From Bacteroidales bacterium (GTDB lineage: Bacteria; Bacteroidota; Bacteroidia; Bacteroidales; FEN-979): 64,000 bases of DNA. Shown here one piece after another: positions 18,301 through 40,125 of this stretch; the stretch's first letter is position 1, and each line of letters opens with the position of its first letter. Below the pieces are notes generated by a model. The model made no database searches. It was not told the DNA's origin and saw nothing but the letters and a program-made list of their open reading frames with translations. The DNA is taken from NCBI GenBank assembly GCA_023231065.1, contig JALNWE010000001.1:13005-77004 (forward strand), in the 5' to 3' direction. A program made the translations under genes and the position numbers.

Positions 18301-18318
18301 TTGTTATTTAATTAACAA
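18301..18318. promoter_or_regulatory. Rex-operator-like palindrome TTGTTATTTAATTAACAA
   Basis: 13/14 half-site match to TTGTTAA-N4-TTAACAA. Lies just upstream of and overlapping the -33 region of the putative hydC1 promoter. Confidence 0.55.
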
Positions 18319-18328: not shown

Positions 18329-18336
18329 TAAATTTG
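18329..18336 (+). promoter_or_regulatory. Bacteroidota -7 box TAAATTTG
   Basis: Matches TAnnTTTG and sits between the two Rex-like boxes, 82 bp upstream of hydC1. Confidence 0.35.
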
Positions 18337-18346: not shown

Positions 18347-18364
18347 CTGTTAATATTTTCACAA
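18347..18364. promoter_or_regulatory. Rex-operator-like palindrome CTGTTAATATTTTCACAA
   Basis: Half-sites cTGTTAA / TTCACAA with a 4-nt spacer, 54 bp upstream of the hydC1 ATG. Confidence 0.5.
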
Positions 18365-18417: not shown

Positions 18418-18882
18418 ATGACAGAGTGCCAGGAATTAATTAAAGAATTGGCAGACAAATATGGCCGGGAAAGAGCCAGTCTGCTACCCATACTTCAGGG
18501 GGTTGTCGAGAAAAATAATTACATCTCAGACACTTGCATGACTGATATTGCAAAGGAGCTTGATCTTTCTGCTGCCCAGGTATATGGAACAGCTACTTTT
18601 TATTCCTTTCTGGATACAGAACCAAGAGGAAAATATGTCATCCGGGTATGTAAGACGATAACATGCGATATGCATGGAAAGAAAATGATCATCCAGACCC
18701 TGGAAGATATGCTTAAAATAAAGGTCGGAGAAACCACCCCGAATAAGAAATTTACCTTACTCGAAACCAATTGTCTTGGTTGGTGCCATGAAGGGCCTGC
18801 CATGCTTATTAATGAAAAGCCCTTCAGTGGATTGACAACTGAAAAGGTGCATGACATCATCAGTGAATATATCAATAAATAA
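18418..18882 (+). CDS. hydC: [FeFe]-hydrogenase NuoE-like [2Fe-2S] subunit (locus 1)
   Basis: 154 aa. Thioredoxin-like 2Fe-2S Cys pattern VCKTITCD...NCLGWCHEGP. Confidence 0.9.
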   Translation: MTECQELIKELADKYGRERASLLPILQGVVEKNNYISDTCMTDIAKELDLSAAQVYGTATFYSFLDTEPRGKYVIRVCKTITCDMHGKKMIIQTLEDMLKIKVGETTPNKKFTLLETNCLGWCHEGPAMLINEKPFSGLTTEKVHDIISEYINK

Positions 18883-18906
18883 TCTTAAAAATTAGGAGAA
18901 ACAGTC

Positions 18907-20073
18907 ATGTCAGAACAAACACTAAAAAGGGTTGACTTAATCTTCGGCGAATATTCCAATGTAAAATATAAAGTTTTAGCAGATACGTTGAAACGTTCCA
19001 ATGAGGAAATTTTAAAAGACCTTTTGGATTCAGGTCTTCGCGGTCGCGGTGGCGCAGGGTTCCCTACGGCCATGAAATGGAAATATACAGCCGAAACCCC
19101 AAGCGATGAACGCTTTGTTATTTGTAACGCGGATGAGGGAGAACCAGGAACATTCAAGGACCGTGAAATTTTATTAAGGGTTCCAAGGAAAGTTTTTTCA
19201 GGAATGGCCATTTGTGGGAAAGTCATCGGCGCCAAGAAAGGTTATATGTACCTCAGGGGTGAATACCGTTTCATGATCCCTGAATTAATGAAAGAGCTTG
19301 AAATATACAATGACCATGCCAAGATGCTGGGCCATGATTTTGAAATTGAAATTCGTCTGGGTTCGGGAGCCTATATCTGCGGGGAAGAAAGTGCACTATT
19401 CGAATCGATGGAAGGTGGGCGTGGAGAACCTCGTAATAAACCGCCCTATCCTACAATCAGTGGTTTTATGAAAAAACCTACCGTTATCAATAATGTTGAG
19501 ACCTTTGTCAATGTCATGATGATCATGCGCTTGGGCCCGGAACAATATAAAAAGCTTGGGACTACCGACTCTCGCGGATCCAAAGTGTTTTCTGTATCTG
19601 GCGATACACCGATTCCGGGAATCTATGAGCTGGAACTGGGAATGTCACTTGACCGGTTTGTAGATGAATTTGGTGATGGTGATACAAAAGCGGTCCAGGT
19701 TGGAGGAGCTTCCGGATTCTGTGTCCCCCGGAAAAAATTCAAAGAAACGGTTATCGGATTCGAGGGAGTCCCTACCGGTGGTTCTATGATGATTTTCAAC
19801 AGTTCACGATCAATGTACAATGTACTCCATAATTATCTTGAATTTTTCGAAGAAGAATCATGTGGACAATGTACTCCTTGCCGTGTGGGCTGCCAGCAAC
19901 TGCGGAAAGGTATTGTTGCTGTTAAAAAAGGTGAGAAAAAAGCAGTTTACCTGGATCAGTTAATGAAGTTAAGCGAGAGCATGAAGCTTACTGCAAAATG
20001 TGGTCTGGGACAATCCGTTGCCAATTCATTTTCCTCCATTGTCAACAATTTTAAGGAAGAGATGATCTACTAA
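18907..20073 (+). CDS. hydB: NuoF-like flavoprotein subunit, minimal form (locus 1)
   Basis: 388 aa. GLRGRGGAGFPTAMKW (FMN/NADH site) and ESCGQCTPCRVG...KCGLGQ (4Fe-4S). Lacks the N-terminal 2Fe-2S and C-terminal 2x[4Fe-4S] domains present in the other two copies. AGGAG lies 8 nt upstream. Confidence 0.9.
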   Translation: MSEQTLKRVDLIFGEYSNVKYKVLADTLKRSNEEILKDLLDSGLRGRGGAGFPTAMKWKYTAETPSDERFVICNADEGEPGTFKDREILLRVPRKVFSGMAICGKVIGAKKGYMYLRGEYRFMIPELMKELEIYNDHAKMLGHDFEIEIRLGSGAYICGEESALFESMEGGRGEPRNKPPYPTISGFMKKPTVINNVETFVNVMMIMRLGPEQYKKLGTTDSRGSKVFSVSGDTPIPGIYELELGMSLDRFVDEFGDGDTKAVQVGGASGFCVPRKKFKETVIGFEGVPTGGSMMIFNSSRSMYNVLHNYLEFFEEESCGQCTPCRVGCQQLRKGIVAVKKGEKKAVYLDQLMKLSESMKLTAKCGLGQSVANSFSSIVNNFKEEMIY

Positions 20074-20105
20074 TCAAGTTTTAACCTGAAAATACACGAA
20101 CAAAT

Positions 20106-21899
20106 ATGTCAAAAAAAATAAATCTCACCATTGACGGCATTAAAGTTTCGGTTGACGAAGGGATGACGATCCTTGAAGCCGCCCGGACGCTTAACATTCA
20201 CATTCCGACCCTGTGTTATCATGAAGACCTTTGTGTGGCCGGTAACTGCCGCGTTTGCGTGGTAGAACAGGAAAAAGTTAAAAACCTTCCGGCATCCTGT
20301 GCCATGCCTGTAGCCGAAGGAATGATTATCCATACCAACAGTATGAAAGTACGTATGGCCAGAAAACATATTGTTGAACTGTTGTTGTCGGAGCACAACG
20401 CGGATTGTACAAAATGTTATAAAAATGGAAATTGTGAACTTCAAGGATTAGCTTCACAAATGCTTACAGGCGATCATCTGTTCCTTGACCTCGTACCGGA
20501 TAAGAATTATACGATCGATATGTTTAATACGGCCATCGTCAAGGATGATAGTCGTTGTATACGCTGTCAGCGTTGTGTAAGGACTTGTGAGGAGTTGCAG
20601 AGTGTCAGCGCCCTGGGGGTCGCATATAAAGGGGATAAAATGAAAATTTCGACTTTCTTTGAACATCCTCTCTTTGAAGTAGTATGCACAAACTGCGGTC
20701 AATGTGTTAACCGTTGTCCGACCGGCGCTTTAATCGAACGTAATTATATTGACCAGGTATGGGATGCCATTTATGATCCGACCAAACACGTTGTTGTACA
20801 AACTGCACCAGCTGTTCGAATTGCACTTGGAGAAGCTTTAGGGCTGGCTCCTGGAAAAATTGTGACGGGAAAAATGGTCGCAGCGCTGAAGCGTCTTGGA
20901 TTTGATTCGGTTCTTGATACAGACTTTACAGCCGACCTTACCATCATTGAAGAGGGTCATGAACTTCTTACAAGGTTGAAGGGCGCCCTTGTTGATAAAG
21001 ACCCCACGGTAGCATTACCGATGGCAACCTCCTGCTCTCCCGGTTGGATTAAATTCATCGAACATACTTTCCCTGAATATCTCGCCAACCTTTCTACCTG
21101 CAAATCACCGCAGCAAATGTTCGGGGCCCTGGCCAAAACTTATTACGCGCAAAAACGCAAAATCGATCCTAAAAATATTGTTTCGGTTTCCATCATGCCA
21201 TGCACCGCAAAAAAATTCGAAGCAAACAGACCTGAGATGCGTTCGAGTGGTTATAAAGATGTTGATTATGTGCTGACCACCCGTGAACTCGGAATTATGA
21301 TCAAACAAGCCGGATTGGAATTTGAAGGTTTACCGGAAGAAAAGTTTGATAGTTTCATGGGGGCTTCAACCGGCGCTGCTGTTATTTTCGGATCAACCGG
21401 CGGCGTTATGGAAGCTGCCCTCCGTACCGTTTACGAAGTTGTTACCGGCAGGGAAGTACCTTTCGATGGATTGAATATCGTACCCGTCCGTGGAACTGAA
21501 GGGGAAATCCGCGAAGCTACTATCAGAATCGAAAAAGTGAAACCTGAATGGAGTTTCCTGGAAGGCGTTGATCTGAATTGTGTGGTTGCCAATGGATTAG
21601 CTAATGCAAAAAAAGTTATGCAAAACGTTAAAGACGGAAAGGCAAATTACCACTTTATCGAGATCATGGCTTGTCCGGGTGGATGTTTGGGCGGCGGGGG
21701 CCAACCAATTCCGACCAATAAAGATATCCGTTCAAAACGTAAATCGGCAATTTACGAAGAAGATATGGGGATGCCCATCAGAAAATCGCATGAAAACCCC
21801 GAGGTTGCTGCAATCTATGAAGAATTTCTTGAAAAACCTTTAGGCCATAAATCTCATGAGTTACTTCATACTCATTATACACCACGAAAGAGGTACTAA
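20106..21899 (+). CDS. hydA: [FeFe]-hydrogenase catalytic subunit (locus 1), variant P1 motif
   Basis: 597 aa. N-terminal 2Fe-2S (CYHEDLCVAGNCRVC), HNADC, two CxxCxxCxxxCP, P1 TSCSPGW (not TSCCP), P2 MPCTAKKFE, P3 EIMACPGGCLGGGGQP and a C-terminal small-subunit-like tail. Confidence 0.92.
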   Translation: MSKKINLTIDGIKVSVDEGMTILEAARTLNIHIPTLCYHEDLCVAGNCRVCVVEQEKVKNLPASCAMPVAEGMIIHTNSMKVRMARKHIVELLLSEHNADCTKCYKNGNCELQGLASQMLTGDHLFLDLVPDKNYTIDMFNTAIVKDDSRCIRCQRCVRTCEELQSVSALGVAYKGDKMKISTFFEHPLFEVVCTNCGQCVNRCPTGALIERNYIDQVWDAIYDPTKHVVVQTAPAVRIALGEALGLAPGKIVTGKMVAALKRLGFDSVLDTDFTADLTIIEEGHELLTRLKGALVDKDPTVALPMATSCSPGWIKFIEHTFPEYLANLSTCKSPQQMFGALAKTYYAQKRKIDPKNIVSVSIMPCTAKKFEANRPEMRSSGYKDVDYVLTTRELGIMIKQAGLEFEGLPEEKFDSFMGASTGAAVIFGSTGGVMEAALRTVYEVVTGREVPFDGLNIVPVRGTEGEIREATIRIEKVKPEWSFLEGVDLNCVVANGLANAKKVMQNVKDGKANYHFIEIMACPGGCLGGGGQPIPTNKDIRSKRKSAIYEEDMGMPIRKSHENPEVAAIYEEFLEKPLGHKSHELLHTHYTPRKRY

Positions 21900-23005: not shown

Positions 23006-24949
23006 ATGAAAAAAAGGTTGCTGTATTTTCTGATCGCAGGTATTTGTATCTCCCTGATCGGGATAATTATAGTCCAATTTTTCTGGATCCGGAACGCTTT
23101 CAACATCAAAGAATCGCAATTTGACCGTGGTGTCAATGAAGCGTTGGGAAGCGCTGTCAATAAAATTGAGACCAGGGAAAATATGTATTTCATCAGCCGG
23201 AATTTTGAAGGGGACAGCATTATGTCAATTGTTCAGGCTTTTACTAAAGACACTTCACAGATCATCATGGAGCGTTTGAATTCCCTCCTCGCTTCCAATG
23301 AGCTTCAACCTTGTAAAGAAAAGGAATGTCCGGCAAATCAGCCGTTCCTCCCCTCTTCCCCATCCCCACCCAGGCAACGAAGAGAAGTTATCCATTATTC
23401 CTACCAATACAATTTCACTCCTTTGCAGTCCGAGATGGACAGTATTTCAAAGCAAATGGAACAATTCATGAAGGAATTTCCAGATGCTCGTTTGAATACT
23501 TTTAGTTTTGAATGGAATGACCAGTTAGCACAACTGGATTCTATTTTTGAAAAGGGACGTGGATCTTATCGATTTCAGGAAGAGATGCCGAATGATTTGG
23601 TTATAACAAACCTGGAAGGGGAAGTCATCGTGGAGGCGCCTGATCCTCGCGGATCCAATTTCATCCGTTACCGTATGCCACAGGTAATGGATCCAAGAAT
23701 AGTATATCATCGTCCCCAAAATCAGGCCCGTAGAAAGCAGTTAAAAGAAAACAGCATACAGAAGCTGGATAACAAAGCAAATAAAATCAAGGATGTTATT
23801 AAAAAGATGGCTATTGAACTGGAGACCAAACCTGCTCCGGTTCAACAACGCATCAATAAAAAAAATCTTCAGGCCACACTCAGTAAAGCTTTTGCCGATA
23901 AAGGGATTGATCTTCCCTTTGAATTTGCAGTCTATTCCCCATCCAACGACAGCAATCCGATACCGATCAGGTCCGCTGGTTTTGTAAAAGAAAACCAGTC
24001 CACATCACACCGTGTTTCCCTTTTCCCCGATGATCTATTTCAGAAACCGGATCTTTTGCTTGTCTTTTTCCCGGATCAGAAAACCCATGTATTGAAATCA
24101 TTGTCACTTTTACTTTTTGGATCCATTCTCTTCACGCTCATCATTGGCCTTACCTCCGGTGCAAGCATTGTAGTAATGATCAGGCAAAAGAAGATCTCCG
24201 ACATTAAAACCGATTTCATCAATAACATGACCCATGAGTTCAAGACACCCATCGCGACCATCTCAATCGCGGCTGATTCCATCAATAATCCCCGCGTGAT
24301 AGGAGAACCGGATACCATTAAAAATTTCACGCGGATCATCAAGGAAGAAAACAACCGGATGAATGCGCGCGTAGAGCAGGTATTACAAATGGCCATGCTG
24401 GACAGCCGTGATTTCCATTTGCGGCTTCATGTTGTCGATATGAATTTATTGATCGAAAGATCGGTCGATCACTTCAGGCTCCAGATAGAAAAACGTGATG
24501 GGGTTATCCGTACATTACTGGAAGCGACCAATCCCTTTGCTGAGGTTGACGAAGATCACATACTGAATGTTTTACTTAACCTTTTGGATAATTCGAATAA
24601 ATATTCGTTGACGAAACCGGAAATAGATGTTTTTTCATTTAACCGTTCCGGAAAAATTTATTTCGGAGTACAGGATAAAGGACTGGGAATGAGCGCAGAA
24701 ACCCAACGGAAGGTATTTGATAAATTCTTCCGGGTGACATCGGGGAACATCCATAATATCAAAGGATTCGGGCTTGGGTTGAGTTATGTCAAGGCAATCG
24801 TACTGGCACATCATGGTGAAATTCGTATTTCCAGTGAAGTGGGAAAAGGGAGCCGTTTTGAAATCTGTCTCCCTGCCCTATCAAAAAGTACGCTGGAAGA
24901 CGAAGGCATTATCGTGGATGGTGAGACAAACATAGGGTCAGAGCTGTAA
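23006..24949 (+). CDS. sensor histidine kinase with periplasmic sensor domain
   Basis: 647 aa. Two TM helices flanking a ~330-aa loop, HisKA H-box MTHEFKTPIATI, HATPase_c N/G1/G2 boxes. Confidence 0.9.
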   Translation: MKKRLLYFLIAGICISLIGIIIVQFFWIRNAFNIKESQFDRGVNEALGSAVNKIETRENMYFISRNFEGDSIMSIVQAFTKDTSQIIMERLNSLLASNELQPCKEKECPANQPFLPSSPSPPRQRREVIHYSYQYNFTPLQSEMDSISKQMEQFMKEFPDARLNTFSFEWNDQLAQLDSIFEKGRGSYRFQEEMPNDLVITNLEGEVIVEAPDPRGSNFIRYRMPQVMDPRIVYHRPQNQARRKQLKENSIQKLDNKANKIKDVIKKMAIELETKPAPVQQRINKKNLQATLSKAFADKGIDLPFEFAVYSPSNDSNPIPIRSAGFVKENQSTSHRVSLFPDDLFQKPDLLLVFFPDQKTHVLKSLSLLLFGSILFTLIIGLTSGASIVVMIRQKKISDIKTDFINNMTHEFKTPIATISIAADSINNPRVIGEPDTIKNFTRIIKEENNRMNARVEQVLQMAMLDSRDFHLRLHVVDMNLLIERSVDHFRLQIEKRDGVIRTLLEATNPFAEVDEDHILNVLLNLLDNSNKYSLTKPEIDVFSFNRSGKIYFGVQDKGLGMSAETQRKVFDKFFRVTSGNIHNIKGFGLGLSYVKAIVLAHHGEIRISSEVGKGSRFEICLPALSKSTLEDEGIIVDGETNIGSEL

Positions 24950-24976
24950 AAATGAACAGTGCAAAGAAATAAAACC

Positions 24977-25675
24977 ATGAATCAAAGGATAAAAATTCTG
25001 TTGGTCGAAGATGATCCAAATTTTGGTTCAATCATGAAATCATATTTGGAATTAAATGATTTTGATGTGATTTTAAAGATTGATGGGAAACAAGGATTGG
25101 CTACCTTTAAAACCATGGTTTTTGATATTTGTATCCTCGATGTGATGATGCCCGAAATGGATGGTTTTACTTTAGCCAGGGAGATAAAGAAGATCAACAG
25201 CCAGGTACCACTAATTTTTCTCACCGCCAAATCGCTGAAAGAAGATATGTTGGAGGGGTTTAAAACAGGTGCGGATGATTATATAACAAAACCATTTGAT
25301 TCTGAGGTTCTTCTGTTTAAACTTAGGGCGATTTTAAAAAGGAACAGCCAAAAAAGTGAAGCGGAAAACGATTTTATCAGCATCTCCATCGGAAAGCTAC
25401 AATTCAACTTTGCGCTCCGTACATTAGCGTTAGACGAACAAGTTCAACAACTTTCCCCAAAGGAGGCAATGCTTTTGAAAATGCTGGTCACATCAAAAGA
25501 AGGTATCCTGTCACGGAAAAATGCCCTGGAAAAAATCTGGGGTTCCGACAACTATTTCAATGGCCGTAGTATGGATGTCTTTATAGCCCGGTTAAGAAAA
25601 TATCTGAAAGCAGACCCTTCTATTGAAATTGCAAATATTCACGGGAACGGTTTCCGTTTAATTGTTACACGGTAA
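24977..25675 (+). CDS. OmpR/PhoB-family response regulator
   Basis: REC (ILLVEDD..ILDVMMP..K) plus a winged-helix C-terminus. Start moved to the ATG at 24977. Confidence 0.9.
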   Translation: MNQRIKILLVEDDPNFGSIMKSYLELNDFDVILKIDGKQGLATFKTMVFDICILDVMMPEMDGFTLAREIKKINSQVPLIFLTAKSLKEDMLEGFKTGADDYITKPFDSEVLLFKLRAILKRNSQKSEAENDFISISIGKLQFNFALRTLALDEQVQQLSPKEAMLLKMLVTSKEGILSRKNALEKIWGSDNYFNGRSMDVFIARLRKYLKADPSIEIANIHGNGFRLIVTR

Positions 25676-25679
25676 TTTC

Positions 25680-25715
25680 CTGAAACTATTGTTTTCAGAT
25701 ATTTTTTCATTTTTC
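25680..25715 (+). terminator. weak hairpin + T-rich tract after the response regulator
   Basis: CTGAAA/TTTCAG stem followed by ATATTTTTTCATTTTT. Confidence 0.35.
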
Positions 25716-25786
25716 AATTTGTCGATTTACTAAGAAGCATTAAATCATTTCTAAACAATGACTTAATATTCAATAATGATTTTATA

Positions 25787-25821
25787 TTGTGAATTTATTC
25801 ACATTGTGAATATTTTAACAA
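25787..25821. promoter_or_regulatory. two abutting Rex-operator-like palindromes
   Basis: TTGTGAATTTATTCACAT (25787-25804) and TTGTGAATATTTTAACAA (25804-25821) share one base (17-bp register). Each has one half-site mismatch to TTGTGAA-N4-TTCACAA. Confidence 0.65.
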
Positions 25822-25826
25822 AAATA

Positions 25827-25858
25827 TTTGGAAGTTTGTTTATCGCGTTGTAATTTTG
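25827..25858 (+). promoter_or_regulatory. putative Bacteroidota promoter (-33 TTTG, -7 TAATTTTG)
   Basis: TTTG at 25827-25830 and TAATTTTG at 25851-25858 (20-bp spacer), 25 bp upstream of the ATG at 25883. Confidence 0.4.
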
Positions 25859-25882
25859 CAGTAACATTTATCATTAAAAAAA

Positions 25883-26227
25883 ATGAAGGTACAAGAAGTC
25901 GTAAAATTGATCAATGGGACAGTCATGACAGGGAATAAAAACCCGGAAGTGACTGTTGATGTTGCTTTTGCTTCGGATCTGATGAGCGACGTCCTTACCA
26001 TTAAAGCAGAGAATCTTTTATTATTAACCGGTTTGGTTAATATTCAGGCGATCCGGACTGCTGAGATGTCAGACATTTCCTGTATTGTTTTTGCAAGGAA
26101 CAAAAATGTAACAGAAGAAATGATCCGCCTGGCTGAAGAGAATGGCATTACAGTCATTGAGAGCCCATACTCATTATTCCGTATCAGCGGGATTCTGTTC
26201 ATTGCGGGAATGGCTCCTGTATATTAA
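25883..26227 (+). CDS. DRTGG domain protein (copy 1)
   Basis: 114 aa. ASDLMSDVL...LLLTGL..IRTA...IVF pattern of the DRTGG domain. Confidence 0.78.
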   Translation: MKVQEVVKLINGTVMTGNKNPEVTVDVAFASDLMSDVLTIKAENLLLLTGLVNIQAIRTAEMSDISCIVFARNKNVTEEMIRLAEENGITVIESPYSLFRISGILFIAGMAPVY

Positions 26228-26238
26228 AATGTGCTATC

Positions 26239-26655
26239 ATGCATTTTGAATATTTTATAGAAGGAGGAAATTTTGCAGAGGCCGGTTCAACATCAAGCCA
26301 GGTTAAAAAAACATTAAAACAATTAAATGTGGATGGGACGGTGATCAAACGGACTGTGGTAGCGTTATATGAGGCTGAGGTAAATATAGTTGCCCATGCT
26401 TACAGCGGGAAGATCACGGTTGAGCTGGACGAGGAAAAAATAGACATTAAGATAGTGGATGAAGGCCCCGGAATCCCTGATATTAAAAGAGCCATGGAAA
26501 TAGGATATTCCACTGCTTCGCCCGAAGTGAGGGAAATGGGTTTCGGCGCCGGAATGGGTTTATCTAACATGAAGAATAATTCAGATAAATTAAATATAAC
26601 CAGTACGGTCGGAAAAGGAACTGAGGTGGAGATAATCAATTATTTTCACCTTTAA
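26239..26655 (+). CDS. RsbW/SpoIIAB-like GHKL ATPase (putative Ser/Thr kinase)
   Basis: 138 aa. N box EAEVNIVAHA, G1 DEGPGI, G2 GFGAGMGL. No HisKA domain. Confidence 0.8.
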   Translation: MHFEYFIEGGNFAEAGSTSSQVKKTLKQLNVDGTVIKRTVVALYEAEVNIVAHAYSGKITVELDEEKIDIKIVDEGPGIPDIKRAMEIGYSTASPEVREMGFGAGMGLSNMKNNSDKLNITSTVGKGTEVEIINYFHL

Positions 26656-26668
26656 TCAAATTATTACC

Positions 26669-28054
26669 ATGAACGATGTGTTTCATCATGCTTTAAAATT
26701 CAGAGAAGATCTTTGTATCGGATGTTCTCATTGCATGAATATTTGCCCGACGGAAGCGATCAGGGTACGCCACGGGAAAGCACATCTTCAGGCAAACCGT
26801 TGCGTTGATTGTGGTGAATGCTACAGGATTTGTCCGGTGGGAGCCATTATAGTTGAACAAGATGATTTCGAAAACATCTACAAGTATCAAACTCGCATTG
26901 CTCTTTTACCTTCGGTTTTCACCGGACAATTTCCCAATAGTATCAGTCATACCGCGATCAGGAGTGCATTGCATGAGCTTGGATTTACTCACGTTTATGA
27001 GGTAGAGGAAGGAGTCGAATTTTTAAGTGATCAATTCCATCAATATATCCGGGAAAAGAAAACGCCCCGGCCTCTGATCTCACCATTTTGTCCTGCCATC
27101 GTCAGGTTAATCCAGGTTAAGTTCCCAACCCTGGTCAATCATATCATTCTTCTTAAAGCCCCGCTGGATATCACTGCATTGAATGCCAGGCAAAATCTTA
27201 CAGAACAAGGGATCAACCCGGAAGAGATCGGAATTTTCTATATCACCCCCTGCGCAGCTAAAATTGTCGCAGTCAAAAGCCCTGTTGGCGAACAAGAATC
27301 GGTGATCGATGGTGTCATTAATATGAATTACCTGTACAATAAAGTACGGAAAATCATCAGTCACCACCGGGGTGCAGACCCGCTGCCTGAAATCCCGGCC
27401 CTCAATGCCAAATCCGTTTGCTGGAGCCTTACCCATGGAGAATCAGACCATCATGAAAAGGGACGTAGTCTGGCCATTGATGAGATCAACAATGTAACAG
27501 AATTCCTTGAAAAAGTGGAAAATGATGAGATCAAAGGCATCGATTTTCTTGAACTCAGAGCTTGTGATGAAAGCTGCGCAGGCGGCGTCCTTTGTCCCGG
27601 GAACCGGTTTTTGACCGTCAATAAAATGCGTGAAAGGACCTCCATCAATCCCATCCTGTCTGGAATTGACAATAAGGGCACACTTTCCTACTCCTCAGAT
27701 CGGCAAAAGTTTTTAACCGACAACATGCGGATCGATCCCATCCTCCCCCGTTCTATCCTGAAACTGGATGACGACGTTGCAGAAGCCATGGTGAAAATGA
27801 AACGGATTTATGAATTGAACCGGATACTTCCACAGGTTGATTGTGGCATTTGTGGTTCACCAACCTGTAAATCGTTATCCGAAGATGTGGTTCAGGACCA
27901 GGCTGACATAAAACAATGTATTTTTATTCAGAAAATCCTGGAACAGAATGAAAAGCTGGATATCTGGGAGTCGATCAAAATCATGCGTGAAATATGGAGT
28001 GATAATAAGCTGGACAAGAATAGCCTAAAGGATGAAATTAACATTATTAATTGA
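26669..28054 (+). CDS. hydrogenase-like Fe-S protein, HydS-type without an output domain
   Basis: 461 aa. Two ferredoxin CxxCxxCxxxCP motifs, H-domain-like motifs ISPFCPAIV / ITPCAAK / RACDESCAGG, and C-terminal CGICGSPTC-x16-C (Cx2Cx4Cx16C). Confidence 0.82.
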   Translation: MNDVFHHALKFREDLCIGCSHCMNICPTEAIRVRHGKAHLQANRCVDCGECYRICPVGAIIVEQDDFENIYKYQTRIALLPSVFTGQFPNSISHTAIRSALHELGFTHVYEVEEGVEFLSDQFHQYIREKKTPRPLISPFCPAIVRLIQVKFPTLVNHIILLKAPLDITALNARQNLTEQGINPEEIGIFYITPCAAKIVAVKSPVGEQESVIDGVINMNYLYNKVRKIISHHRGADPLPEIPALNAKSVCWSLTHGESDHHEKGRSLAIDEINNVTEFLEKVENDEIKGIDFLELRACDESCAGGVLCPGNRFLTVNKMRERTSINPILSGIDNKGTLSYSSDRQKFLTDNMRIDPILPRSILKLDDDVAEAMVKMKRIYELNRILPQVDCGICGSPTCKSLSEDVVQDQADIKQCIFIQKILEQNEKLDIWESIKIMREIWSDNKLDKNSLKDEINIIN

Positions 28055-28074
28055 AAATATCAGGAGGAATTACC

Positions 28075-28410
28075 GTGAAAGTAAGTGAACTGGCAGATAA
28101 ATTGGGATTGACAATATTTGGAGGCGCTTCGGGACTTCAAAATGAAATAAAGGGCGGATACACTTCCGATCTGCTCAGCGACGTAATGGGCCATGCTTGT
28201 TCAAATCAGGTATGGATAACCGTTCAAACACACAAAAATGTGATTGCTGTAGCTTCCCTGAAAGAACTTGCTTCTATTATCCTGATCAAGGGTTTAGAAC
28301 CTGCACAGGAAGTGATTGAGCAAAGCGATATCGAAAAAATACCCTTACTGGGGACTAAAGAAGAAGCCTTCGAAATCACTGGAAAGATCTACAATATTTT
28401 AAAAGGATAA
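28075..28410 (+). CDS. DRTGG domain protein (copy 2)
   Basis: GTG start 7 nt after AGGAGG (28062-28067). TSDLLSDVM...IILIKG pattern. Confidence 0.75.
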   Translation: MKVSELADKLGLTIFGGASGLQNEIKGGYTSDLLSDVMGHACSNQVWITVQTHKNVIAVASLKELASIILIKGLEPAQEVIEQSDIEKIPLLGTKEEAFEITGKIYNILKG

Positions 28411-29153
28411 TGAAAACCTTCAGGGCAGACCTACATATTCATACTTTATTATCCCCATGTGGCGACCTGGAGATGAGTCCCGATGTAATCCTGGCCAAAG
28501 CCCGTGAAAAGAATTTGGACCTGATCGGGATTACAGATCATAACAGTACCAGACAATGCCGGGTGATCCGGGAGATGGGCGCTGATTGTGGAATTACTGT
28601 CCTTACCGGAGCCGAAGTAACCACACTGGAAGAAGCCCATTGTCTGGTATATTTCGATACCTTTTGTCAACTCAATGATTTTCAAAAGTTTCTCGACATT
28701 CATCTTCCTAATTTAAAAAATGATGTTAAAAAATTCGGTTATCAGGTATATGTAGATGCCCTGAACAATATTAAAGGAGCTGAAGAACGGTTGCTTATTA
28801 ATGCCCTGGATGCTTCGATTGATGAAGTAGAAAAAGAGGTTCACCGGTTAAATGGCCTTTTTATCCCTGCCCATCTGGATAAACAACGGTTCAGTATCAT
28901 AAGCCAGTTGGGATTCTTGCCACCTGATTTAAAGGTAGATGCTTTGGAAATCTCTCCTTTTACCAGCCCGGACGAATGGGTGTCCGGTCATCCGGAACAT
29001 AAAAAGTATTGCCTTATAAGTGGTTCCGATGCTCATTATCCTGACCAGATCGGAACCCGTATTACTGGTTTTATCATGAACCGGGTAAATTTCGAAGAGA
29101 TCAGAAATGCTTTAAAAGGAGAAAGCAACCGTGAGGTAATAATTATGAACTAA
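28410..29153 (+). CDS. PHP-family metal-dependent phosphoesterase
   Basis: 247 aa. DLHIHTLLSPCGD and GITDHNS motifs. TAATG overlap with the preceding gene. Confidence 0.85.
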   Translation: MKTFRADLHIHTLLSPCGDLEMSPDVILAKAREKNLDLIGITDHNSTRQCRVIREMGADCGITVLTGAEVTTLEEAHCLVYFDTFCQLNDFQKFLDIHLPNLKNDVKKFGYQVYVDALNNIKGAEERLLINALDASIDEVEKEVHRLNGLFIPAHLDKQRFSIISQLGFLPPDLKVDALEISPFTSPDEWVSGHPEHKKYCLISGSDAHYPDQIGTRITGFIMNRVNFEEIRNALKGESNREVIIMN

Positions 29154-29181
29154 TTTTTTACTTTTACAATTAGTTTTTTAT
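29148..29181 (+). terminator. AT-only hairpin + T-run between regulatory and structural halves of locus 2
   Basis: AACTAATT/AATTAGTT 8-bp stem, 12-nt loop, then TTTTAT. Weak because there are no GC pairs. Confidence 0.3.
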
Positions 29182-29239
29182 AAAAAAGTTAATAGAAGAA
29201 CAATAAAATTTTACCATTTTTGCAGTGAAAGATTTAGCA

Positions 29240-29779
29240 ATGCATATCCTGGATATACTTCAGAATTCTTTGAGGGCCAATGCGACAAAAATCGATCTTG
29301 ATATTGATGAGGTCACAACGGCGAACCAGCTGATCATTGCAGTTAGCGATAATGGGAAAGGGATGTCAGAGGAAGTATGCGAAAAGGTTACGGATCCATT
29401 TTACACCTCCCGGACTACCCGAAAAGTCGGCCTTGGCCTTCCTTTATTGAAGCAAAACGCAGAACAAACCGGTGGATCGTTAAGGATAGAAAGTGAAGAA
29501 GGATTAGGGACCCGGGTCACAGCAACCTTTATCCTTAATCACATTGACAGACCGGAGATGGGCGATATAGCGGGAGCTTTAGTACTCACTATAACTGCAA
29601 ACCCGGATATTGAATTCAGTTACAGGCACAGGAAAGACATGCAGAGTTATACTTTTAACACCAGGGAAATAAAAGGAGCGTTGGGGGATTTGCCGCTTAA
29701 TGACCCTCATGTCTATCCCCTTTTGCTGGAGATGGTTCGTGAAAATCTTAAAGAAATTCATGTTGATTGCACAACATAA
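29240..29779 (+). CDS. HATPase_c protein without HisKA domain
   Basis: N box DILQNSLRA, G1 DNGKGM, F box PFYTSR, G2 GLGLPL. The C-terminal ~80 aa are unassigned. Start set at the ATG at 29240. Confidence 0.8.
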   Translation: MHILDILQNSLRANATKIDLDIDEVTTANQLIIAVSDNGKGMSEEVCEKVTDPFYTSRTTRKVGLGLPLLKQNAEQTGGSLRIESEEGLGTRVTATFILNHIDRPEMGDIAGALVLTITANPDIEFSYRHRKDMQSYTFNTREIKGALGDLPLNDPHVYPLLLEMVRENLKEIHVDCTT

Positions 29780-29800
29780 TAAATTTTAAATAAATTGTTT

Positions 29801-30199
29801 ATGGAAAAAATAAAGACACTGGCCGACTTAAAAAAGATGCAGGAAAACTTAAGGGCTAAAATTGATTTAAGGGAAAAGAGCGCGCAACCCGAAACGCATA
29901 TTCAGGTTAAAGTTGCGATGGCAACGTGTGGCATTGCGTCAGGGGCCAAAGAGGTCATGGAGGCGTTTGTTGAAGAGTTCAGCAAACGCAACATAGATGC
30001 CGTGGTGACACAAACAGGTTGTATGGGTTACTGTTACGCCGAACCTACCGTGGAAATAACCAAACCGGGTCAGGACCCGATCACCTTCGGTTATGTCGAT
30101 GTCAAAAAAGTCAGTAAACTGATAGACAAATATATTCTTAACAATGAATTGGTTGATGGGATCATACCGGTCAATTATCAATCCATCGATAAACATTAA
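29801..30199 (+). CDS. thioredoxin-like [2Fe-2S] ferredoxin
   Basis: MATCGIASGA...TGCMGYCYAEP Cys pattern. Start set at the ATG at 29801. Confidence 0.8.
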   Translation: MEKIKTLADLKKMQENLRAKIDLREKSAQPETHIQVKVAMATCGIASGAKEVMEAFVEEFSKRNIDAVVTQTGCMGYCYAEPTVEITKPGQDPITFGYVDVKKVSKLIDKYILNNELVDGIIPVNYQSIDKH

Positions 30200-30217
30200 A
30201 CATCCGGGAGCAATAAT

Positions 30218-32011
30218 ATGGGAAAGATCAAATATCACATGCTGGTTTGCGGCGGGACAGGATGTCACGCTTCACAGAGTGACCAGATCCTGAAAAAATT
30301 TGAAACCCTGATCCATGATAGAGGGTTGGAGAATGAGGTCCAGGTCATCAAAACAGGTTGTTTCGGTTTTTGCGAAAAAGGCCCGATCGTAAAAATGATG
30401 CCTGACAACACTTTTTATACGAAGGTAAAGCTTGATGATTGTGAGGAAATTCTGGAAGAACACATCATCAAGGGCAGAAAGGTAACCCGGTTATTATATG
30501 AAAATCCGGAGACCGGCGAGCATGTCAGCGATTCGAAACACATGGAATTTTATAAGAAGCAGATCCGGATTGCATTGCGTAATTGTGGGTTCATCAATCC
30601 AGAGAACATTGAAGAGTATATCGCCCGTGATGGGTATCAGGCTTTAGGCAAGGTGTTGACCGAGTTATCCCCTGAAGCGACCATTGAAATCATGAAAAAA
30701 TCAGGTCTTCGTGGTCGTGGTGGAGGCGGATTCCCTACTGGTTTAAAATGGGAGATAACCCGTGCTGTAAAATCTGATCAGAAATATGTTGTCTGTAATG
30801 CTGATGAGGGTGACCCAGGCGCCTTTATGGACCGGTCGGTTCTTGAAGGCGATCCTCATTCCGTGCTGGAAGCCATGGCCATCAATGGATATTGTACAGG
30901 CGCTGACAAAGGCCTGGTATATATCCGCGCAGAATACCCACTGGCGGTTGAGCGACTTAAAATTGCCATGAAGCAGGCCCGTGAATATGGTTTGTTAGGG
31001 AAGAATATTTTAGGTACGGGATTTAATTTTGACGTTGAGATACGATATGGGGCAGGTGCATTTGTGTGCGGTGAAGAGACCGCCCTGATCCATTCGATGG
31101 AAGGACTCCGAGGAGAACCCACGGTAAAGCCACCTTTCCCTTCCGAATCGGGCTATCTCGGAAAACCCACCAACGTCAATAATGTTGAAACCTATGCCAA
31201 CGTTCCGGTGATCATCAACAAAGGAGCTGATTGGTTTGCAAAAATCGGGACAGAACGTTCAAAAGGGACCAAAGTATTTGCCCTTGCCGGAAAAATCAAC
31301 AATGTTGGGTTAATCGAAGTCCCCATGGGAATAACCCTCCGTGAAGTCATCTATGAGATCGGTGGCGGAATCAAAAACGACAAAGAGTTCAAGGCGGTTC
31401 AGACTGGCGGGCCATCAGGAGGTATGCTGACGGTGAAAGACCTCGATACTCCCATCGATTATGACAATCTTATTGCCGCTGGTTCCATGATGGGATCAGG
31501 GGGCATGATCGTGATGGACGAAAACGACTGTATGGTTGCGATGGCAAAATTCTATCTGCAGTTTACAGTGGAAGAATCCTGTGGTAAATGTTCCCCATGT
31601 CGTATCGGGAATAAGAGATTATATGAAATGCTTGAGAAGATCACTCAGGGGAATGGCACTCCCGAAGACCTTGACAAATTGAGAAATCTCAGCCAGGTCA
31701 TCAAGGACACCTCTTTATGCGGTCTTGGGCAATCCTCACCGAATCCTGTCCTTTCCAGTCTCAACAATTTTTATGATGAGTACATGGAGCATGTAAACTT
31801 AAAAAAATGCCGTGCAGGAAAATGCAAATCGTTGATGCAATATATTATCAATGCAGAGAATTGTATTGGTTGTACCCTGTGTGCAAGAAATTGTCCTGTC
31901 AACGCAATAACCGGTGAACGCAAACAGGTCCATCTGATTGATCAGGAAAAATGCATCAAATGTGGCGCCTGTATGGAGAAATGTAAATTTAATGCGATTT
32001 ATATCAAATAA
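30218..32011 (+). CDS. hydB: NuoF-like flavoprotein subunit, full-length (locus 2)
   Basis: 597 aa. N-terminal 2Fe-2S (VCGGTGC...TGCFGFCEKGP), GLRGRGGGGFPTGLKW, ESCGKCSPCR and a C-terminal 2x CxxCxxCxxxC. Confidence 0.93.
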   Translation: MGKIKYHMLVCGGTGCHASQSDQILKKFETLIHDRGLENEVQVIKTGCFGFCEKGPIVKMMPDNTFYTKVKLDDCEEILEEHIIKGRKVTRLLYENPETGEHVSDSKHMEFYKKQIRIALRNCGFINPENIEEYIARDGYQALGKVLTELSPEATIEIMKKSGLRGRGGGGFPTGLKWEITRAVKSDQKYVVCNADEGDPGAFMDRSVLEGDPHSVLEAMAINGYCTGADKGLVYIRAEYPLAVERLKIAMKQAREYGLLGKNILGTGFNFDVEIRYGAGAFVCGEETALIHSMEGLRGEPTVKPPFPSESGYLGKPTNVNNVETYANVPVIINKGADWFAKIGTERSKGTKVFALAGKINNVGLIEVPMGITLREVIYEIGGGIKNDKEFKAVQTGGPSGGMLTVKDLDTPIDYDNLIAAGSMMGSGGMIVMDENDCMVAMAKFYLQFTVEESCGKCSPCRIGNKRLYEMLEKITQGNGTPEDLDKLRNLSQVIKDTSLCGLGQSSPNPVLSSLNNFYDEYMEHVNLKKCRAGKCKSLMQYIINAENCIGCTLCARNCPVNAITGERKQVHLIDQEKCIKCGACMEKCKFNAIYIK

Positions 32012-32024
32012 TCAGGAGGAATAC

Positions 32025-33797
32025 ATGGAAATGGTAAAACTGACGATTGACGGAAAGCCCGTTGAAGTCGAAAAAGGCACGACGATTTTAAAGGCAGCCA
32101 AAACTGTTGGCATTGATATACCGACCCTTTGCTTTTTTGAATTAAAGGACATGAGCATTGAAAACCGTCCTGGCGGATGCCGTGTCTGCGTAGTTGAAGT
32201 AAAGGGGCGTCGTAATCTGGCCCCTGCCTGCACAACCATTGTTATGCAAGGCATGGAAGTCAACACGCGCAATATCCGCGTATTAAATGCGCGTAGGACT
32301 GTTCTGGAGCTTATCCTATCTGATCATCCTGCTGAATGTCTCACCTGTGCAAAATCAGGAAATTGTGAACTTCAGAGTTTAGCGCAACAACTTGGTGTCA
32401 GGGAAATACCTTTTCAGGGAGAACAATCAACTTACCGTAAAGATACATCCCCTGCCATTATCCGGGATATTGACAAGTGTATTATGTGCCGGCGGTGTGA
32501 AATGATGTGTAACGACGTTCAGACGGTGGGAGCGCTTTCTGCTGTCAACAGAGGTTTTATGGCAGTGGTAGCCCCTGCTTTTGAAATGAATTTAGAAAAA
32601 TCACCCTGTACTTATTGCGGACAATGTGTATCGGTTTGCCCAACGGGCGCCCTTACAGAAGTTGATCACTCACGCAATGTGATCAATGCCCTTGCTGATC
32701 CTACCAAAACGGTAGTTGTACAGACAGCGCCAGCAGTCCGTGCTGCCCTGGGCGAAGAATTTGGCCTTGCGCCAGGCACTCTTGTAACGGGTAAGATGGT
32801 TGCAGCTCTCAGAAGACTCGGTTTTAACTATGTGTTCGACACTGATTTTGCTGCCGACTTGACTATCATGGAAGAAGGAAGTGAGTTACTCGACCGTCTT
32901 ACCCGTTATCTCAAGGGTGATAAAAGCGTGAAATTGCCTATCCTGACATCATGTTGTCCGGGCTGGGTCAACTTTTTCGAGCATAATTTTCCTGATATGC
33001 TTGATATTCCTTCAACCGCCAAGTCACCTCAACAGATGTTCGGACCAATTGCGAAGGAATACTTCGGAAAGAAGCTTGGTGTTGACAGAAAAAATCTGAT
33101 TGTAGTCTCGATCATGCCGTGTCTGGCAAAGAAATATGAATGCCAGCGTGAAGAATTCAAGGTAAACGGAGATCCTGACGTCAATTTTTCATTGTCAACC
33201 CGTGAGCTTGGCCATTTGATCAAACAGGCGAACATTGATTTTAATTCACTTCCTGATGAGGATTTCGACGATCCATTGGGAGAATCAACCGGAGCCAGTG
33301 TGATCTTTGGAAATACAGGAGGTGTCATTGAAGCTGCCTGCCGTACAGCATACGAGCTGTACACCGGTAAAAAGCTTGAGAAGGTTGAATTCGAAGAACT
33401 CCGGGGCATGGAAGGCATACGTCATGCCACGATTGATTTTGATGGTTTGCCCCTCAATATTGGGATTGCCCATGGATTAGGAAATGCGCGGAAGCTTCTG
33501 GAAGATATTCAGGCCGGAAGAAACCATTTCCATGCCATTGAAATCATGGCCTGTCCTGGTGGATGTATCGGCGGTGGCGGCCAACCATACCACCATGGAG
33601 ATTCAATGATCCTCAAACAACGTGCTGCAGCCCTTTATCGAGAAGATGCAGGAAAGCCCATCCGTAAATCACATGAGAATCCTTTCATTATTGAATTATA
33701 CAAGGAATTCCTGGGTAAACCACTGAGCGAAAAATCGCATCACCTTCTTCACACCCATTATTTTGATAAAAGCGCTGGGGTGTTTGTTGAGGAATAA
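32025..33797 (+). CDS. hydA: [FeFe]-hydrogenase catalytic subunit (locus 2)
   Basis: Start at the ATG at 32025, 5 nt after AGGAGG. P1 TSCCPGW, P2 MPCLAKKYE, P3 EIMACPGGCIGGGGQP. N-terminal 2Fe-2S plus ferredoxin domains. Confidence 0.93.
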   Translation: MEMVKLTIDGKPVEVEKGTTILKAAKTVGIDIPTLCFFELKDMSIENRPGGCRVCVVEVKGRRNLAPACTTIVMQGMEVNTRNIRVLNARRTVLELILSDHPAECLTCAKSGNCELQSLAQQLGVREIPFQGEQSTYRKDTSPAIIRDIDKCIMCRRCEMMCNDVQTVGALSAVNRGFMAVVAPAFEMNLEKSPCTYCGQCVSVCPTGALTEVDHSRNVINALADPTKTVVVQTAPAVRAALGEEFGLAPGTLVTGKMVAALRRLGFNYVFDTDFAADLTIMEEGSELLDRLTRYLKGDKSVKLPILTSCCPGWVNFFEHNFPDMLDIPSTAKSPQQMFGPIAKEYFGKKLGVDRKNLIVVSIMPCLAKKYECQREEFKVNGDPDVNFSLSTRELGHLIKQANIDFNSLPDEDFDDPLGESTGASVIFGNTGGVIEAACRTAYELYTGKKLEKVEFEELRGMEGIRHATIDFDGLPLNIGIAHGLGNARKLLEDIQAGRNHFHAIEIMACPGGCIGGGGQPYHHGDSMILKQRAAALYREDAGKPIRKSHENPFIIELYKEFLGKPLSEKSHHLLHTHYFDKSAGVFVEE

Positions 33798-33839
33798 TAC
33801 AGTTGTAATATCAGAAGTACCTATAAATAAAAGGCAATT

Positions 33840-34319
33840 ATGGCAAAGATTAAATTATCAGAAAAAAAATTGGAGGAGCTCAAGGCAGTCTGCAAATCCT
33901 TTAACAATGAAAAGGGAGAGTTGATTAATGTTCTCCATAAGGCACAAGGAATTTTCGGGTACCTTCCGGCCGAAGTCCAGGAAGTGATTTCCAAAGAACT
34001 GAATGTTTCTGTCGCACATGTATATGGTATTGTAACTTTTTATTCATTTTTCACGATGACTCCCAAAGGAGAGCATCCCGTTTCGATCTGTTTGGGGACA
34101 GCCTGCTATGTCAGAGGCGCTGAAAAAGTATTAGAGGAGTTCAAACGGGTCTTGAAAATCCAGGTTGGTGAAACGACTCCTGATGGGAAATTTTCACTCA
34201 GTTGCCTCCGTTGTGTTGGCGCCTGTGGACTTGCCCCTGTCGTGCTTGTGGGTGAAAAAGTTTATGGACGGGTTTCTCCTGACGGGGTCAAAGATATCGT
34301 TGCAGAATACAACAGCTAA
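33840..34319 (+). CDS. hydC: NuoE-like [2Fe-2S] subunit (locus 2)
   Basis: 159 aa. ICLGTACYVRG...SCLRCVGACGLAP. Confidence 0.9.
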   Translation: MAKIKLSEKKLEELKAVCKSFNNEKGELINVLHKAQGIFGYLPAEVQEVISKELNVSVAHVYGIVTFYSFFTMTPKGEHPVSICLGTACYVRGAEKVLEEFKRVLKIQVGETTPDGKFSLSCLRCVGACGLAPVVLVGEKVYGRVSPDGVKDIVAEYNS

Positions 34320-34435: not shown

Positions 34436-35674
34436 CTAATAAAATTTCATGGTAACCTCTTTGAGGAATTTTTCTTCAAGGGTACGCGCTATACGGTGAA
34501 CCACGGTCCTGCGTAATTCAAGCTCTATGGGTAAAGTCGGATCCTGGTGGGCAATATTAATGTTTGTACCCACAAGAAAATGTATTTCGTCACAATCAAG
34601 GATCATACGGACAATTTCATCGGCAGGCCCCTTCCCCAGTTTGTAATTATTGTGATATTTTTTCAATAGTTCGCTCGTTTTACTAAGTGTCAGGATCCCT
34701 TCGGTGATAAGATCGACACCATTCATATTGGAAACAGGTGGCAAGTCAGGATCAAGCATGACGTTGGTGTCGTGTATTTCTTCGCTCCATTCACGGGCTA
34801 TCATATCGCCTGTGGTTGCGCCACAGATGATTTTTTTCCCCTGAAATTGTTTGAAAACATCGCAAAACAGGGAATCGTTTTCGGGATTTTGAGGAGGGCC
34901 GGAGCAGATCATTATTTTCCGGGGCTCCCTGAAATAGATAACACCGCAACTGATATCGTCCCTGGGATGAAAACCATCATTCATATTGGCCCTGTTGACC
35001 ACCTTGGCGGCCAGGTTGACAGCCGATATATCATGTTCATCCTGGATGGTCTCTAAAACATATTTCTCAAGATTGACTGTCCCCCACCCCAGGGAATATT
35101 TTTCGCTACCCAAACCAGATTGGGTTACGCCATCGGAACAGAAGACGATCCGGTCTTCTTTCTGTGGTTTGTATGATGCTGTAAGAATTTCCCTCCCGCT
35201 CCTTTTACCACCTTCAAGAACAATACAATTCCATTCCGGTTCGTGGATATGGTTACCGCGAAGGACCATGGTTTTTGGGTTCTCGTATTCCAGGATCCGG
35301 ACTTCCCCTTCCACATCAATCTCGATGATAGTAAATGTGGAGTAGTTCATATTCTTCACACTATCAACAGGTAATGTATCTGTAATAATCGCCGCGATCT
35401 TCTGGACACTTTTATGTTCCTGGGTAAAATTCACAGCAAGGGTAGCGGCTAAGGTCCCAAGCATATTGGCTTTAATCCCATGGCCCATTCCGTCGGATAA
35501 AACGACAATGATCCTTCCTTCCTCTTTGATCCTTCGCGAAATAAAAACATCACCACAGACCCGTGCATCTGCATGGCATTTTTGCTGACAGGTTACTTCT
35601 ATGTAAAATCGTTCGTTCAAAGCTGACAGGTATGAGATTTCTCTATTTTCCGGTAGGATTCCGGTATGATTCAA
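34436..35674 (-). CDS. PP2C/SpoIIE-family serine phosphatase with uncharacterised C-terminal domain
   Basis: 412 aa. GDVF...VVLSDGMGHGIKANM and DGV..SG motifs. ~180-aa C-terminal domain of unknown function. Start overlaps the upstream sensor gene by 32 nt. Confidence 0.85.
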   Translation of the reverse strand: MNHTGILPENREISYLSALNERFYIEVTCQQKCHADARVCGDVFISRRIKEEGRIIVVLSDGMGHGIKANMLGTLAATLAVNFTQEHKSVQKIAAIITDTLPVDSVKNMNYSTFTIIEIDVEGEVRILEYENPKTMVLRGNHIHEPEWNCIVLEGGKRSGREILTASYKPQKEDRIVFCSDGVTQSGLGSEKYSLGWGTVNLEKYVLETIQDEHDISAVNLAAKVVNRANMNDGFHPRDDISCGVIYFREPRKIMICSGPPQNPENDSLFCDVFKQFQGKKIICGATTGDMIAREWSEEIHDTNVMLDPDLPPVSNMNGVDLITEGILTLSKTSELLKKYHNNYKLGKGPADEIVRMILDCDEIHFLVGTNINIAHQDPTLPIELELRRTVVHRIARTLEEKFLKEVTMKFY

Positions 35675-37602: not shown

Positions 37603-37637
37603 TTGTTTATTTTTTCACATTGCTAATTTTTTCACAG
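37603..37637. promoter_or_regulatory. two abutting Rex-operator-like palindromes (degenerate)
   Basis: TTGTTTATTTTTTCACAT (37603-37620) and TTGCTAATTTTTTCACAG (37620-37637) share one base, the same 17-bp register as at 25787-25821. They lie in the divergent hydS / hydC3 intergenic region. Confidence 0.5.
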
Positions 37638-37666: not shown

Positions 37667-37674
37667 TATTTTTG
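37667..37674 (+). promoter_or_regulatory. Bacteroidota -7 box TATTTTTG
   Basis: Matches TAnnTTTG, 29 bp upstream of the hydC3 ATG at 37703. Confidence 0.35.
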
Positions 37675-38167: not shown

Positions 38168-38168
38168 A

Positions 38169-40118: not shown

Positions 40119-40125
40119 CAGGAAA

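Follow-up and report, generated by a model that had tools for sequence, protein, structure and literature searches.

Hydrogenase Island and Probable Double Operator

The 64-kb stretch of the Bacteroidales contig JALNWE010000001.1 analyzed here (hereafter, the window) carries an island of three HydABC-type [FeFe]-hydrogenase loci between truA and ribF/trmD/rplS, as identified by a Pfam scan of its open reading frames (ORFs). The focus of this study is a 35-bp element at 25787-25821, upstream of the second of these loci, which very probably is a composite double operator for the regulator Rex that is encoded at 45506-46147 in the same island. Locus 1 (18418-21899) encodes NuoE-like, short NuoF-like, and HydA proteins, and locus 3 (37703-46147) encodes NuoE, NuoF, HydA, a HydS-histidine-kinase fusion, a receiver protein, a hybrid kinase, and Rex. 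Locus 2, located between them on the forward strand, was identified by the same scan as a 10-gene operon (25883-34319), which encodes, in order, a DRTGG protein, a GHKL ATPase, a HydS-like sensory [FeFe]-hydrogenase (26669-28054), another DRTGG protein, a PHP phosphoesterase, another GHKL ATPase, a 2Fe-2S protein, a NuoF-like HydB, HydA, and a NuoE-like HydC.

The element is composed of two 18-mers, TTGTGAATTTATTCACAT at 25787-25804 (box 1) and TTGTGAATATTTTAACAA at 25804-25821 (box 2), which, like all Rex boxes described below, are assigned to neither strand. Re-reading of the window confirmed both at the places given in a preliminary description of this DNA, along with a centre-to-centre distance of 17 bp and exactly one mismatch per box to the experimentally validated Rex consensus TTGTGAA-N4-TTCACAA. 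Both boxes thus have the 18-bp inverted repeat of a Rex operator, in its consensus or variant form. Box 2 has no mismatch at all when the TTAACA half-site known from Rex motifs of Thermoanaerobacterales is allowed; the motif TTGTTA...TAACAA has been reported for Rex of Thermoanaerobacter and Thermoanaerobacterium (PMC5886521). The variation between G and T at position 5 and between C and A at position 14 among orthologous sites agrees with this variant. The preliminary description had also noted that the boxes have their terminal T (25804) in common, which is correct for the window and not conserved in its relatives, as the junction base among 25 aligned double sites is T in 14, C in five, G in three, and A in three. 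The conserved feature is the 17-bp register, and the shared T is incidental.

The boxes stand out clearly from chance expectation. When up to one mismatch was allowed, they were the sole matches in the whole window, where 0.06 were expected, and none of 100 dinucleotide-preserving shuffles of the window reached two matches. The 3,987 nt of intergenic DNA in the window (32.5% GC) were searched separately, allowing G or T at position 5 and C or A at position 14. Here, the possibility raised in the preliminary description that similar matches are equally frequent in random AT-rich intergenic DNA did not hold, as there were six sites with up to two mismatches compared to 0.22 expected. The six sites (18301, 18347, 25787, 25804, 37603, and 37620) are all located 5′ of the three hydrogenase loci, and no pair of sites at a distance of 17 bp arose in 300 shuffles of the intergenic DNA.

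The same excess was found in a pooled set of the window and related loci (1.97 Mb), in which 11, 73, and 216 sites were found with zero, up to one, and up to two mismatches, respectively, compared to 0.05, 2.9, and 45 in shuffles of the local composition. Among site pairs scored at offsets up to 80 bp, 41 were spaced by exactly 17 bp, one by 44 bp, and one by 46 bp, with none at any other offset; the shuffles of the pooled set contained no 17-bp pair.

Promoter and Leader of Locus 2

The primary sigma factor of Bacteroidetes recognizes TAnnTTTG at -12 to -5 and TTTG near -33. Both elements are found on the forward strand 3′ of the boxes, where TAATTTTG at 25851-25858 matches TAnnTTTG and is preceded by TTTG at 25827-25830, the G of which falls at -33 if TAATTTTG is numbered -12 to -5. 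With this numbering, transcription is predicted to start near 25863, and box 1 and box 2 would span approximately -76 to -59 and -59 to -42, with centres at -67.5 and -50.5. The promoter was correctly described as lying directly downstream of the boxes, since the TTTG begins 6 bp past the end of the operator (a 5-nt gap), and the distance of 62 bp from the operator end to the ATG of the first gene (25883) was likewise reproduced. Judged by its spacing and motifs, the predicted promoter has perfect geometry for the Bacteroidetes sigma-A type. The double site is positioned in the promoter region of an operon for redox or energy metabolism, as is typical of Rex operators, and hydrogenases are among the taxon-specific targets known for Rex (PMC6391272, PMC5886521). 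A scan for sigma-70 promoters and terminators was uninformative because Bacteroidetes use -33/-7 promoters.

An RNA element was considered as another explanation and rejected. No Rfam family apart from one tRNA was detected in the window, and the fold of the 25676-25882 transcript was no better than those of shuffled sequences (z = -0.04).

Conservation in Related Bacteroidales

A genome scan with the HydS-like protein provided 80 Bacteroidales loci of 13 kb each (L002-L081, 49-74% identity), and the relatives nearest to the window locus were Prolixibacteraceae- and Draconibacterium-like metagenome-assembled genomes. The best 120 matches in a homologue search with this protein were all from Bacteroidota. 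The gene order of locus 2 is kept in all 80 loci and in two extra loci that were fetched separately, L162 (Lentimicrobium) and L163. A double site in the exact 17-bp register is present 5′ of the DRTGG gene in 24 of the 80 loci, at HydS-like identities as low as approximately 50%, as well as in the two extra loci, where it ends approximately 28 nt before the -7 box. The element is thus conserved upstream of orthologous genes, as in a regulog.

The consensus among the relatives is nTGTKAAnnnnnTMACA, occurring twice. Six positions that were not forced by the search pattern (T2, T13, A17, T19, A24, and T30) are invariant in all 25 aligned sequences, and box 2 is better conserved than box 1. In an anchored comparison, conservation was confined to the operator, a (C)TTG located 6-9 nt past it, and the -7 box, with diverged flanks. 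The -7 box is located 29-30 nt past the operator in the window and in 15 of the 24 related loci, and approximately 28 nt past it in L030 and L036. In other relatives the double site is closer to the core promoter, ending 9 nt before the -7 box in L025, L044, and L056 and overlapping it in L058, L059, and L061. The loci with sites cover three different promoters and lineages as distant as the Lentimicrobiaceae, and the lineage that keeps the composite layout is the Bacteroidales (Prolixibacteraceae-like, Lentimicrobiaceae, and others). In addition, L163 has a third Rex-type box, TTGTTAATTTAATAACAA (9163-9180), directly past the -7 box of its locus-2 promoter, at the transcription start, a roadblock position.

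Rex Protein

The regulator expected to bind these sites is encoded on the forward strand at 45506-46147, with a gene start inside the 3′ end of the hybrid kinase gene that precedes it. The preliminary description placed a rex gene downstream in the same island, and this gene, 19.7 kb from the element, is a genuine rex. Its product exceeded the cutoffs of the NCBIfam equivalog and subfamily models for Rex, with 200.5 bits on NF003995 (cutoff 126) and 185 bits on NF003996 (cutoff 138), and contains the N-terminal DNA-binding domain (Pfam PF06971) and the CoA-binding/Rossmann domain (PF02629). It aligned over its full length to five solved Rex proteins (B. subtilis, T. maritima, S. agalactiae, Thermoanaerobacter, and Thermus) with E-values of 4e-32 to 1e-25, and an identical protein in NCBI bears the name Rex.

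In the Rex-DNA structure of S. agalactiae, the recognition helix contacts the two guanines of the operator through Arg50 and Arg51 (PMC8376106). Alignment to 3keo, 2vt2, 5zz5, and 3wg9 identified R49 and R50 as their counterparts in the window Rex. The Rossmann GxGxxG motif (GLGNLG) and the residues Tyr101 and Asp193 of the nucleotide/dimer interface are also kept. The genome of the window thus encodes a cognate Rex that retains the residues for reading DNA and for binding NAD(H). The wing differs (GNLRKGY compared to GRRGFGY), with the wing arginine displaced by one residue.

The rex gene is directly followed by ribF (FAD synthetase/riboflavin kinase) in the window (45506-47088) and in 11 of the 11 related loci tabulated, whichever hydrogenase locus is located upstream, suggesting that flavin supply may be connected to redox sensing.

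Other Rex-Type Operators

A second double operator (TTGTTTATTTTTTCACAT / TTGCTAATTTTTTCACAG, 37603-37637), also in 17-bp register, is located 5′ of locus 3, the operon that ends in rex. Its distance to the -7 box (TATTTTTG, 37667-37674) is 29 nt, equal to that at locus 2, although this double site is weaker, with conserved weak left half-sites (TGTTTA and TGCTAA). Since rex overlaps the gene preceding it, the locus-3 operator looks like a case of putative autoregulation, which has been reported for several Rex proteins (PMC6391272, PMC8376106). A metagenome scan with Rex yielded 80 loci (L082-L161, 81-95% identity), 36 of which had enough upstream DNA to be eligible. Double sites of the locus-3 type were found in 26 of these 36; they lie where the operon begins, approximately 7.8 kb 5′ of rex, and are followed by the -7 box after 28-30 nt. 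In at least seven of the other ten, rex-ribF is located downstream of an operon of the locus-1 type, which is preceded by Rex boxes in L115, L140, L144, and L149. The rex gene adjoins HydABC loci in every related locus tabulated. Moreover, longest contigs of equal length among the matches to Rex and to the HydS-like protein (e.g., 68,679, 39,545, 35,505, 102,455, 31,912, and 36,557 bp) suggest that both are encoded on the same contigs.

At locus 1, two single boxes flank the promoter on both sides, 46 bp apart. The first (TTGTTATTTAATTAACAA, 18301-18318) ends 10 nt before the -7 box (TAAATTTG, 18329-18336) and lies over the -33 region, while the second (CTGTTAATATTTTCACAA, 18347-18364) would correspond to approximately +7 to +24 of the predicted transcript. 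This arrangement is of the classical repressor type. Box pairs 43-44 bp apart are found at locus 1 of L115 and L162, and of the two boxes in L162, which are 43 bp apart, one is perfect to the strict consensus and the other to the relaxed consensus.

A further double site of the TTGTTAATTTAATAACAAAGTTAATTATATAACAA type is present inside locus 2 of 16 close relatives, between the PHP and GHKL genes and approximately 10 nt before an internal TAATTTTG, with a variant in L006. The relatives with this internal operator are L002-L015, L019, L022, and L023, and it is located approximately +2.45 to +2.62 kb from the start of the HydS-like gene. The window has a remnant of it (AAGTTAATAGAAGAACAA, 29186-29203) that is decayed in comparison to the intact relatives, and the internal -7 box in the same region (29153-29225) is decayed as well (CATTTTTG). 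It may be speculated that transcription of the structural genes leans more on the upstream promoter in the window genome.

Other Features of the Island

A two-component system of a histidine kinase and an RprY-like regulator (23006-25675) is located just 5′ of the double operator and may be a co-regulator of locus 2. Its response regulator (24959-25675) belongs to the OmpR family and scored 285 bits against the RprY model, under the equivalog cutoff of 370 bits. A sensory hydrogenase and a PP2C phosphatase are encoded on the reverse strand between loci 2 and 3 (34436-37520).

The island encodes three distinct sensory-type [FeFe]-hydrogenase-like proteins: one fused to a HisKA/HATPase kinase (41844-43826), one neighboring the PP2C phosphatase (35643-37520, reverse strand), and one among the DRTGG, GHKL, and PHP proteins of locus 2 (26669-28054). 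These contexts suggest three parallel routes of H2 sensing. Two short repeat arrays were also observed. Approximately 11 heptamers (TGACCAT / TGACTAT) at 43824-43902 occupy the 105-nt gap between the gene for the HydS-histidine-kinase fusion and the receiver-domain gene, and could be either an array for regulator binding or a slippage-prone repeat. At 57348-57391, the heptamer GATGATT occurs approximately six times in a short gap between two ORFs.

Assignment to Rex and Alternative Explanations

The assignment of the element at 25787-25821 to Rex, which we consider very probable, is based on the match of both boxes to the motif, the excess of such sites over chance, the footprint of conserved positions and register next to a recognizable promoter, the presence of a genuine rex, the link between the motif and rex, the repressor-type placements of the motif at other promoters, and the precedent in other bacteria. 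Several observations weigh against it. The related loci share ancestry, and the counts given above are therefore not independent samples. The 13-kb genome loci contained no rex, and none was found up to 10 kb away from the L162 and L163 sites. The operators of loci 2 and 3 are wholly upstream of the -33 element, which is unusual for simple occlusion. The Rex consensus itself contains the core TGTGA-N6-TCACA that is recognized by CRP-type regulators, and among the 20 double-site loci whose upstream sequence is long enough, 14 have a two-component system directly 5′ of the site, compared to one of 50 loci without the site.

Rex could bind the element and, at such a distal position, act as an activator or anti-activator. 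The operator ends 28-30 nt before the -7 box at two loci, a rigidity more typical of factors that touch RNA polymerase, and the three paralogous HydABC loci of the island might differ in the direction of control. However, the rigid spacing has a simple explanation in that the operator abuts the -33 element, which itself is at a fixed distance from the -7 box, and the double site of relatives is also found over the -33 region or the -7 box. Moreover, the characterized Rex proteins cited here are all repressors that are released by NADH (PMC5317091, PMC6391272, PMC8376106). Such a role of Rex at locus 2 is unlikely.

The shared core raises the possibility that a regulator of the CRP/FNR family, with which Bacteroidetes are richly endowed, binds the boxes and activates transcription from upstream of the -33 element. 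The positions of the centres, approximately -50.5 and -67.5 upstream of the core promoter, are typical of activators. On the other hand, the second G of TGTGA and its partner C are key contacts of CRP, and these are the positions that vary: the inner G is G in 13 and T in 12 sequences of box 1, and G in 21 and T in four of box 2, while its partner is A in 22 of 25 and 20 of 25 sequences, respectively. Conservation is instead seen at the positions that are typical of Rex operators, namely the outer T/A and the inner A/T. This pattern departs from the inner G and C expected of CRP/FNR sites. The motif is also found at no fewer than four different distances from -7 boxes, including positions over the -33 region and the transcription start, which fits a repressor better, and its occurrence follows the rex operon. 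Among the approximately 50 ORFs scanned, which are confined to the window and do not include a small number of ORFs beyond 55020, there was no gene for a Crp/Fnr regulator. Taken together, CRP/FNR binding appears quite improbable.

The neighboring RprY-like response regulator (24959-25675) is a very improbable candidate for the double site. It is favored by the association of two-component systems with double-site loci and by RprY of P. gingivalis, which represses an operon for a redox enzyme (nqrA). Regulators of the OmpR/PhoB type usually bind direct repeats with a period of approximately 10-11 bp, whereas each box is a two-fold symmetric inverted repeat and the direct period is 17 bp. Eleven double-site loci have no neighboring two-component system (L025, L030, L036, L044, L056, L058, L059, L061, L070, L162, and L163), while L019 has the system and lacks the upstream double site. 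Locus 3 and the internal promoter have a double site as well, and the association of the double site with the two-component system is confounded by phylogeny. A published RprY binding motif for comparison was not found in a literature search.

Finally, the notion that the boxes are chance palindromes of AT-rich intergenic DNA is effectively refuted, as composition-matched shuffles never reproduce the matches and the sites, unlike their flanks, are kept in dozens of diverged loci.

Proposed Mechanism of Regulation

Characterized Rex proteins bind their operators when NADH is low relative to NAD+, and their release by NADH derepresses genes whose products reoxidize NADH (PMC5317091, PMC6391272, PMC8376106). 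HydABC-type hydrogenases, as in Caldithrix and Moorella, produce H2 jointly from NADH and reduced ferredoxin (PMC5317091). Since HydABC oxidizes NADH, derepression of the hydrogenase loci at high NADH would be physiologically sensible.

We infer that Rex binds the element cooperatively, responds to NADH, and acts as a repressor. At low ratios of NADH to NAD+, two Rex dimers would occupy the two 18-bp inverted repeats, and the fixed 17-bp register suggests that this occupation may be cooperative. Rex bound at approximately -76 to -42 could hinder sigma region 4 or the upstream contacts of RNA polymerase, by which the locus-2 promoter would be switched off. When NADH rises, Rex would leave the DNA, allowing transcription of the sensor module and of the HydABC-type [FeFe]-hydrogenase operon, and excess reducing equivalents could then exit as H2. 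Control by the same Rex may extend to the remaining two hydrogenase loci on the island and to the operon that includes rex, with the HydS-type sensor modules in the operons as a putative second layer of control.

The weakest step of this proposal is repression from -76 to -42 by interference with the polymerase or sigma factor. Repression from about -50 reportedly has a precedent in FNR at the E. coli ndh promoter. The 17-bp offset corresponds to approximately 1.6 helical turns, so that the dimers would be located on roughly opposite faces of the DNA, and the wings of adjacent monomers might approach the same minor groove at the junction. A more specific proposal, which we regard as possible and rather doubtful, is that the element is a dedicated composite operator on which two Rex dimers, placed on roughly opposite helix faces, bind cooperatively to operators with one base pair in common, generating a steeper, switch-like response to NADH/NAD+ and repressing by blocking upstream contacts of RNA polymerase rather than the core promoter. 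A description of such an operating mode of Rex was not found in the literature search.

Comparison to Known Rex Systems and Significance

Two of the closest precedents are found in Firmicutes. In Caldicellulosiruptor bescii, Rex operators are located 5′ of the Hyd [FeFe]-hydrogenase genes (Athe_1295 operon), hydG, ech, and rex, and binding was demonstrated by electrophoretic mobility shift assay (PMC6391272). That system shares with the island the regulator family, the 18-bp palindrome consensus, a multimeric NADH/ferredoxin [FeFe] hydrogenase as a target, and rex as a member of its own regulon. However, C. bescii, a Firmicute, uses sigma-70-type promoters and has just one site, at 39 bp from the ATG, whereas the Bacteroidales window has a -33/-7 promoter and two overlapping sites wholly upstream of -33, identified here from sequence alone. 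In Thermoanaerobacterium saccharolyticum, one Rex site is predicted 5′ of hfsABCD, which includes a sensory hydrogenase module, and two are predicted 5′ of adhE (PMC5886521). The likeness extends to an operon with a HydS-type sensory hydrogenase and kinase/phosphatase partners, the TTGTTA...TAACAA variant, and more than one site per promoter, although the adhE sites are approximately 119 bp apart (-150 and -31) and not abutting, and hfs has a single site. Promoters with multiple Rex sites are known for adhE and ldh1, with wider spacing (PMC8376106, PMC5886521).

Outside of Firmicutes, Caldithrix abyssi has a rex-hydABC operon with one candidate Rex site (PMC5317091). Caldithrix also belongs to the FCB superphylum and has rex inside the HydABC cluster behind a Rex box, as at locus 3. 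It differs in that rex is the first gene of the operon, compared to the last regulatory gene here, and in having a single box with two mismatches instead of a double site. The crystal structures of Rex-operator complexes, S. agalactiae 3KET (PMC8376106) and T. aquaticus Rex 3IKT, have one dimer per operator. In these winged-helix dimers, two arginines read successive major grooves of the 18-bp repeat, and both arginines are kept in the window Rex. The differences are the wing sequence and the number of dimers, as two dimers are predicted here on operators sharing a base pair.

The regulator, the motif, and the class of targets are thus already known, with Rex control of [FeFe] hydrogenases established in Firmicutes, and the advance is incremental. 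The apparent novelty lies in the phylum and in the fixed, overlapping arrangement at approximately -76 to -42. Rex is usually presented as a Gram-positive regulator, and most Gram-negative bacteria reportedly appear to lack it (PMC8376106). In our literature search, neither a Rex regulon of Bacteroidetes nor abutting Rex operators were encountered, which is weak evidence as the search did not cover the main comparative study of Rex regulons.

If the assignment is confirmed, environmental Bacteroidales from lakes, sediments, and digesters would tie three [FeFe]-hydrogenase loci of the electron-bifurcating type, together with rex, to the NADH/NAD+ ratio. Modules for H2 sensing would then be layered over control by Rex, which would offer a handle on the switching of fermentative H2 production in an abundant uncultured group. 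The invariant 17-bp overlapping layout may also provide a simple means to study possible cooperation between DNA-bound Rex dimers.

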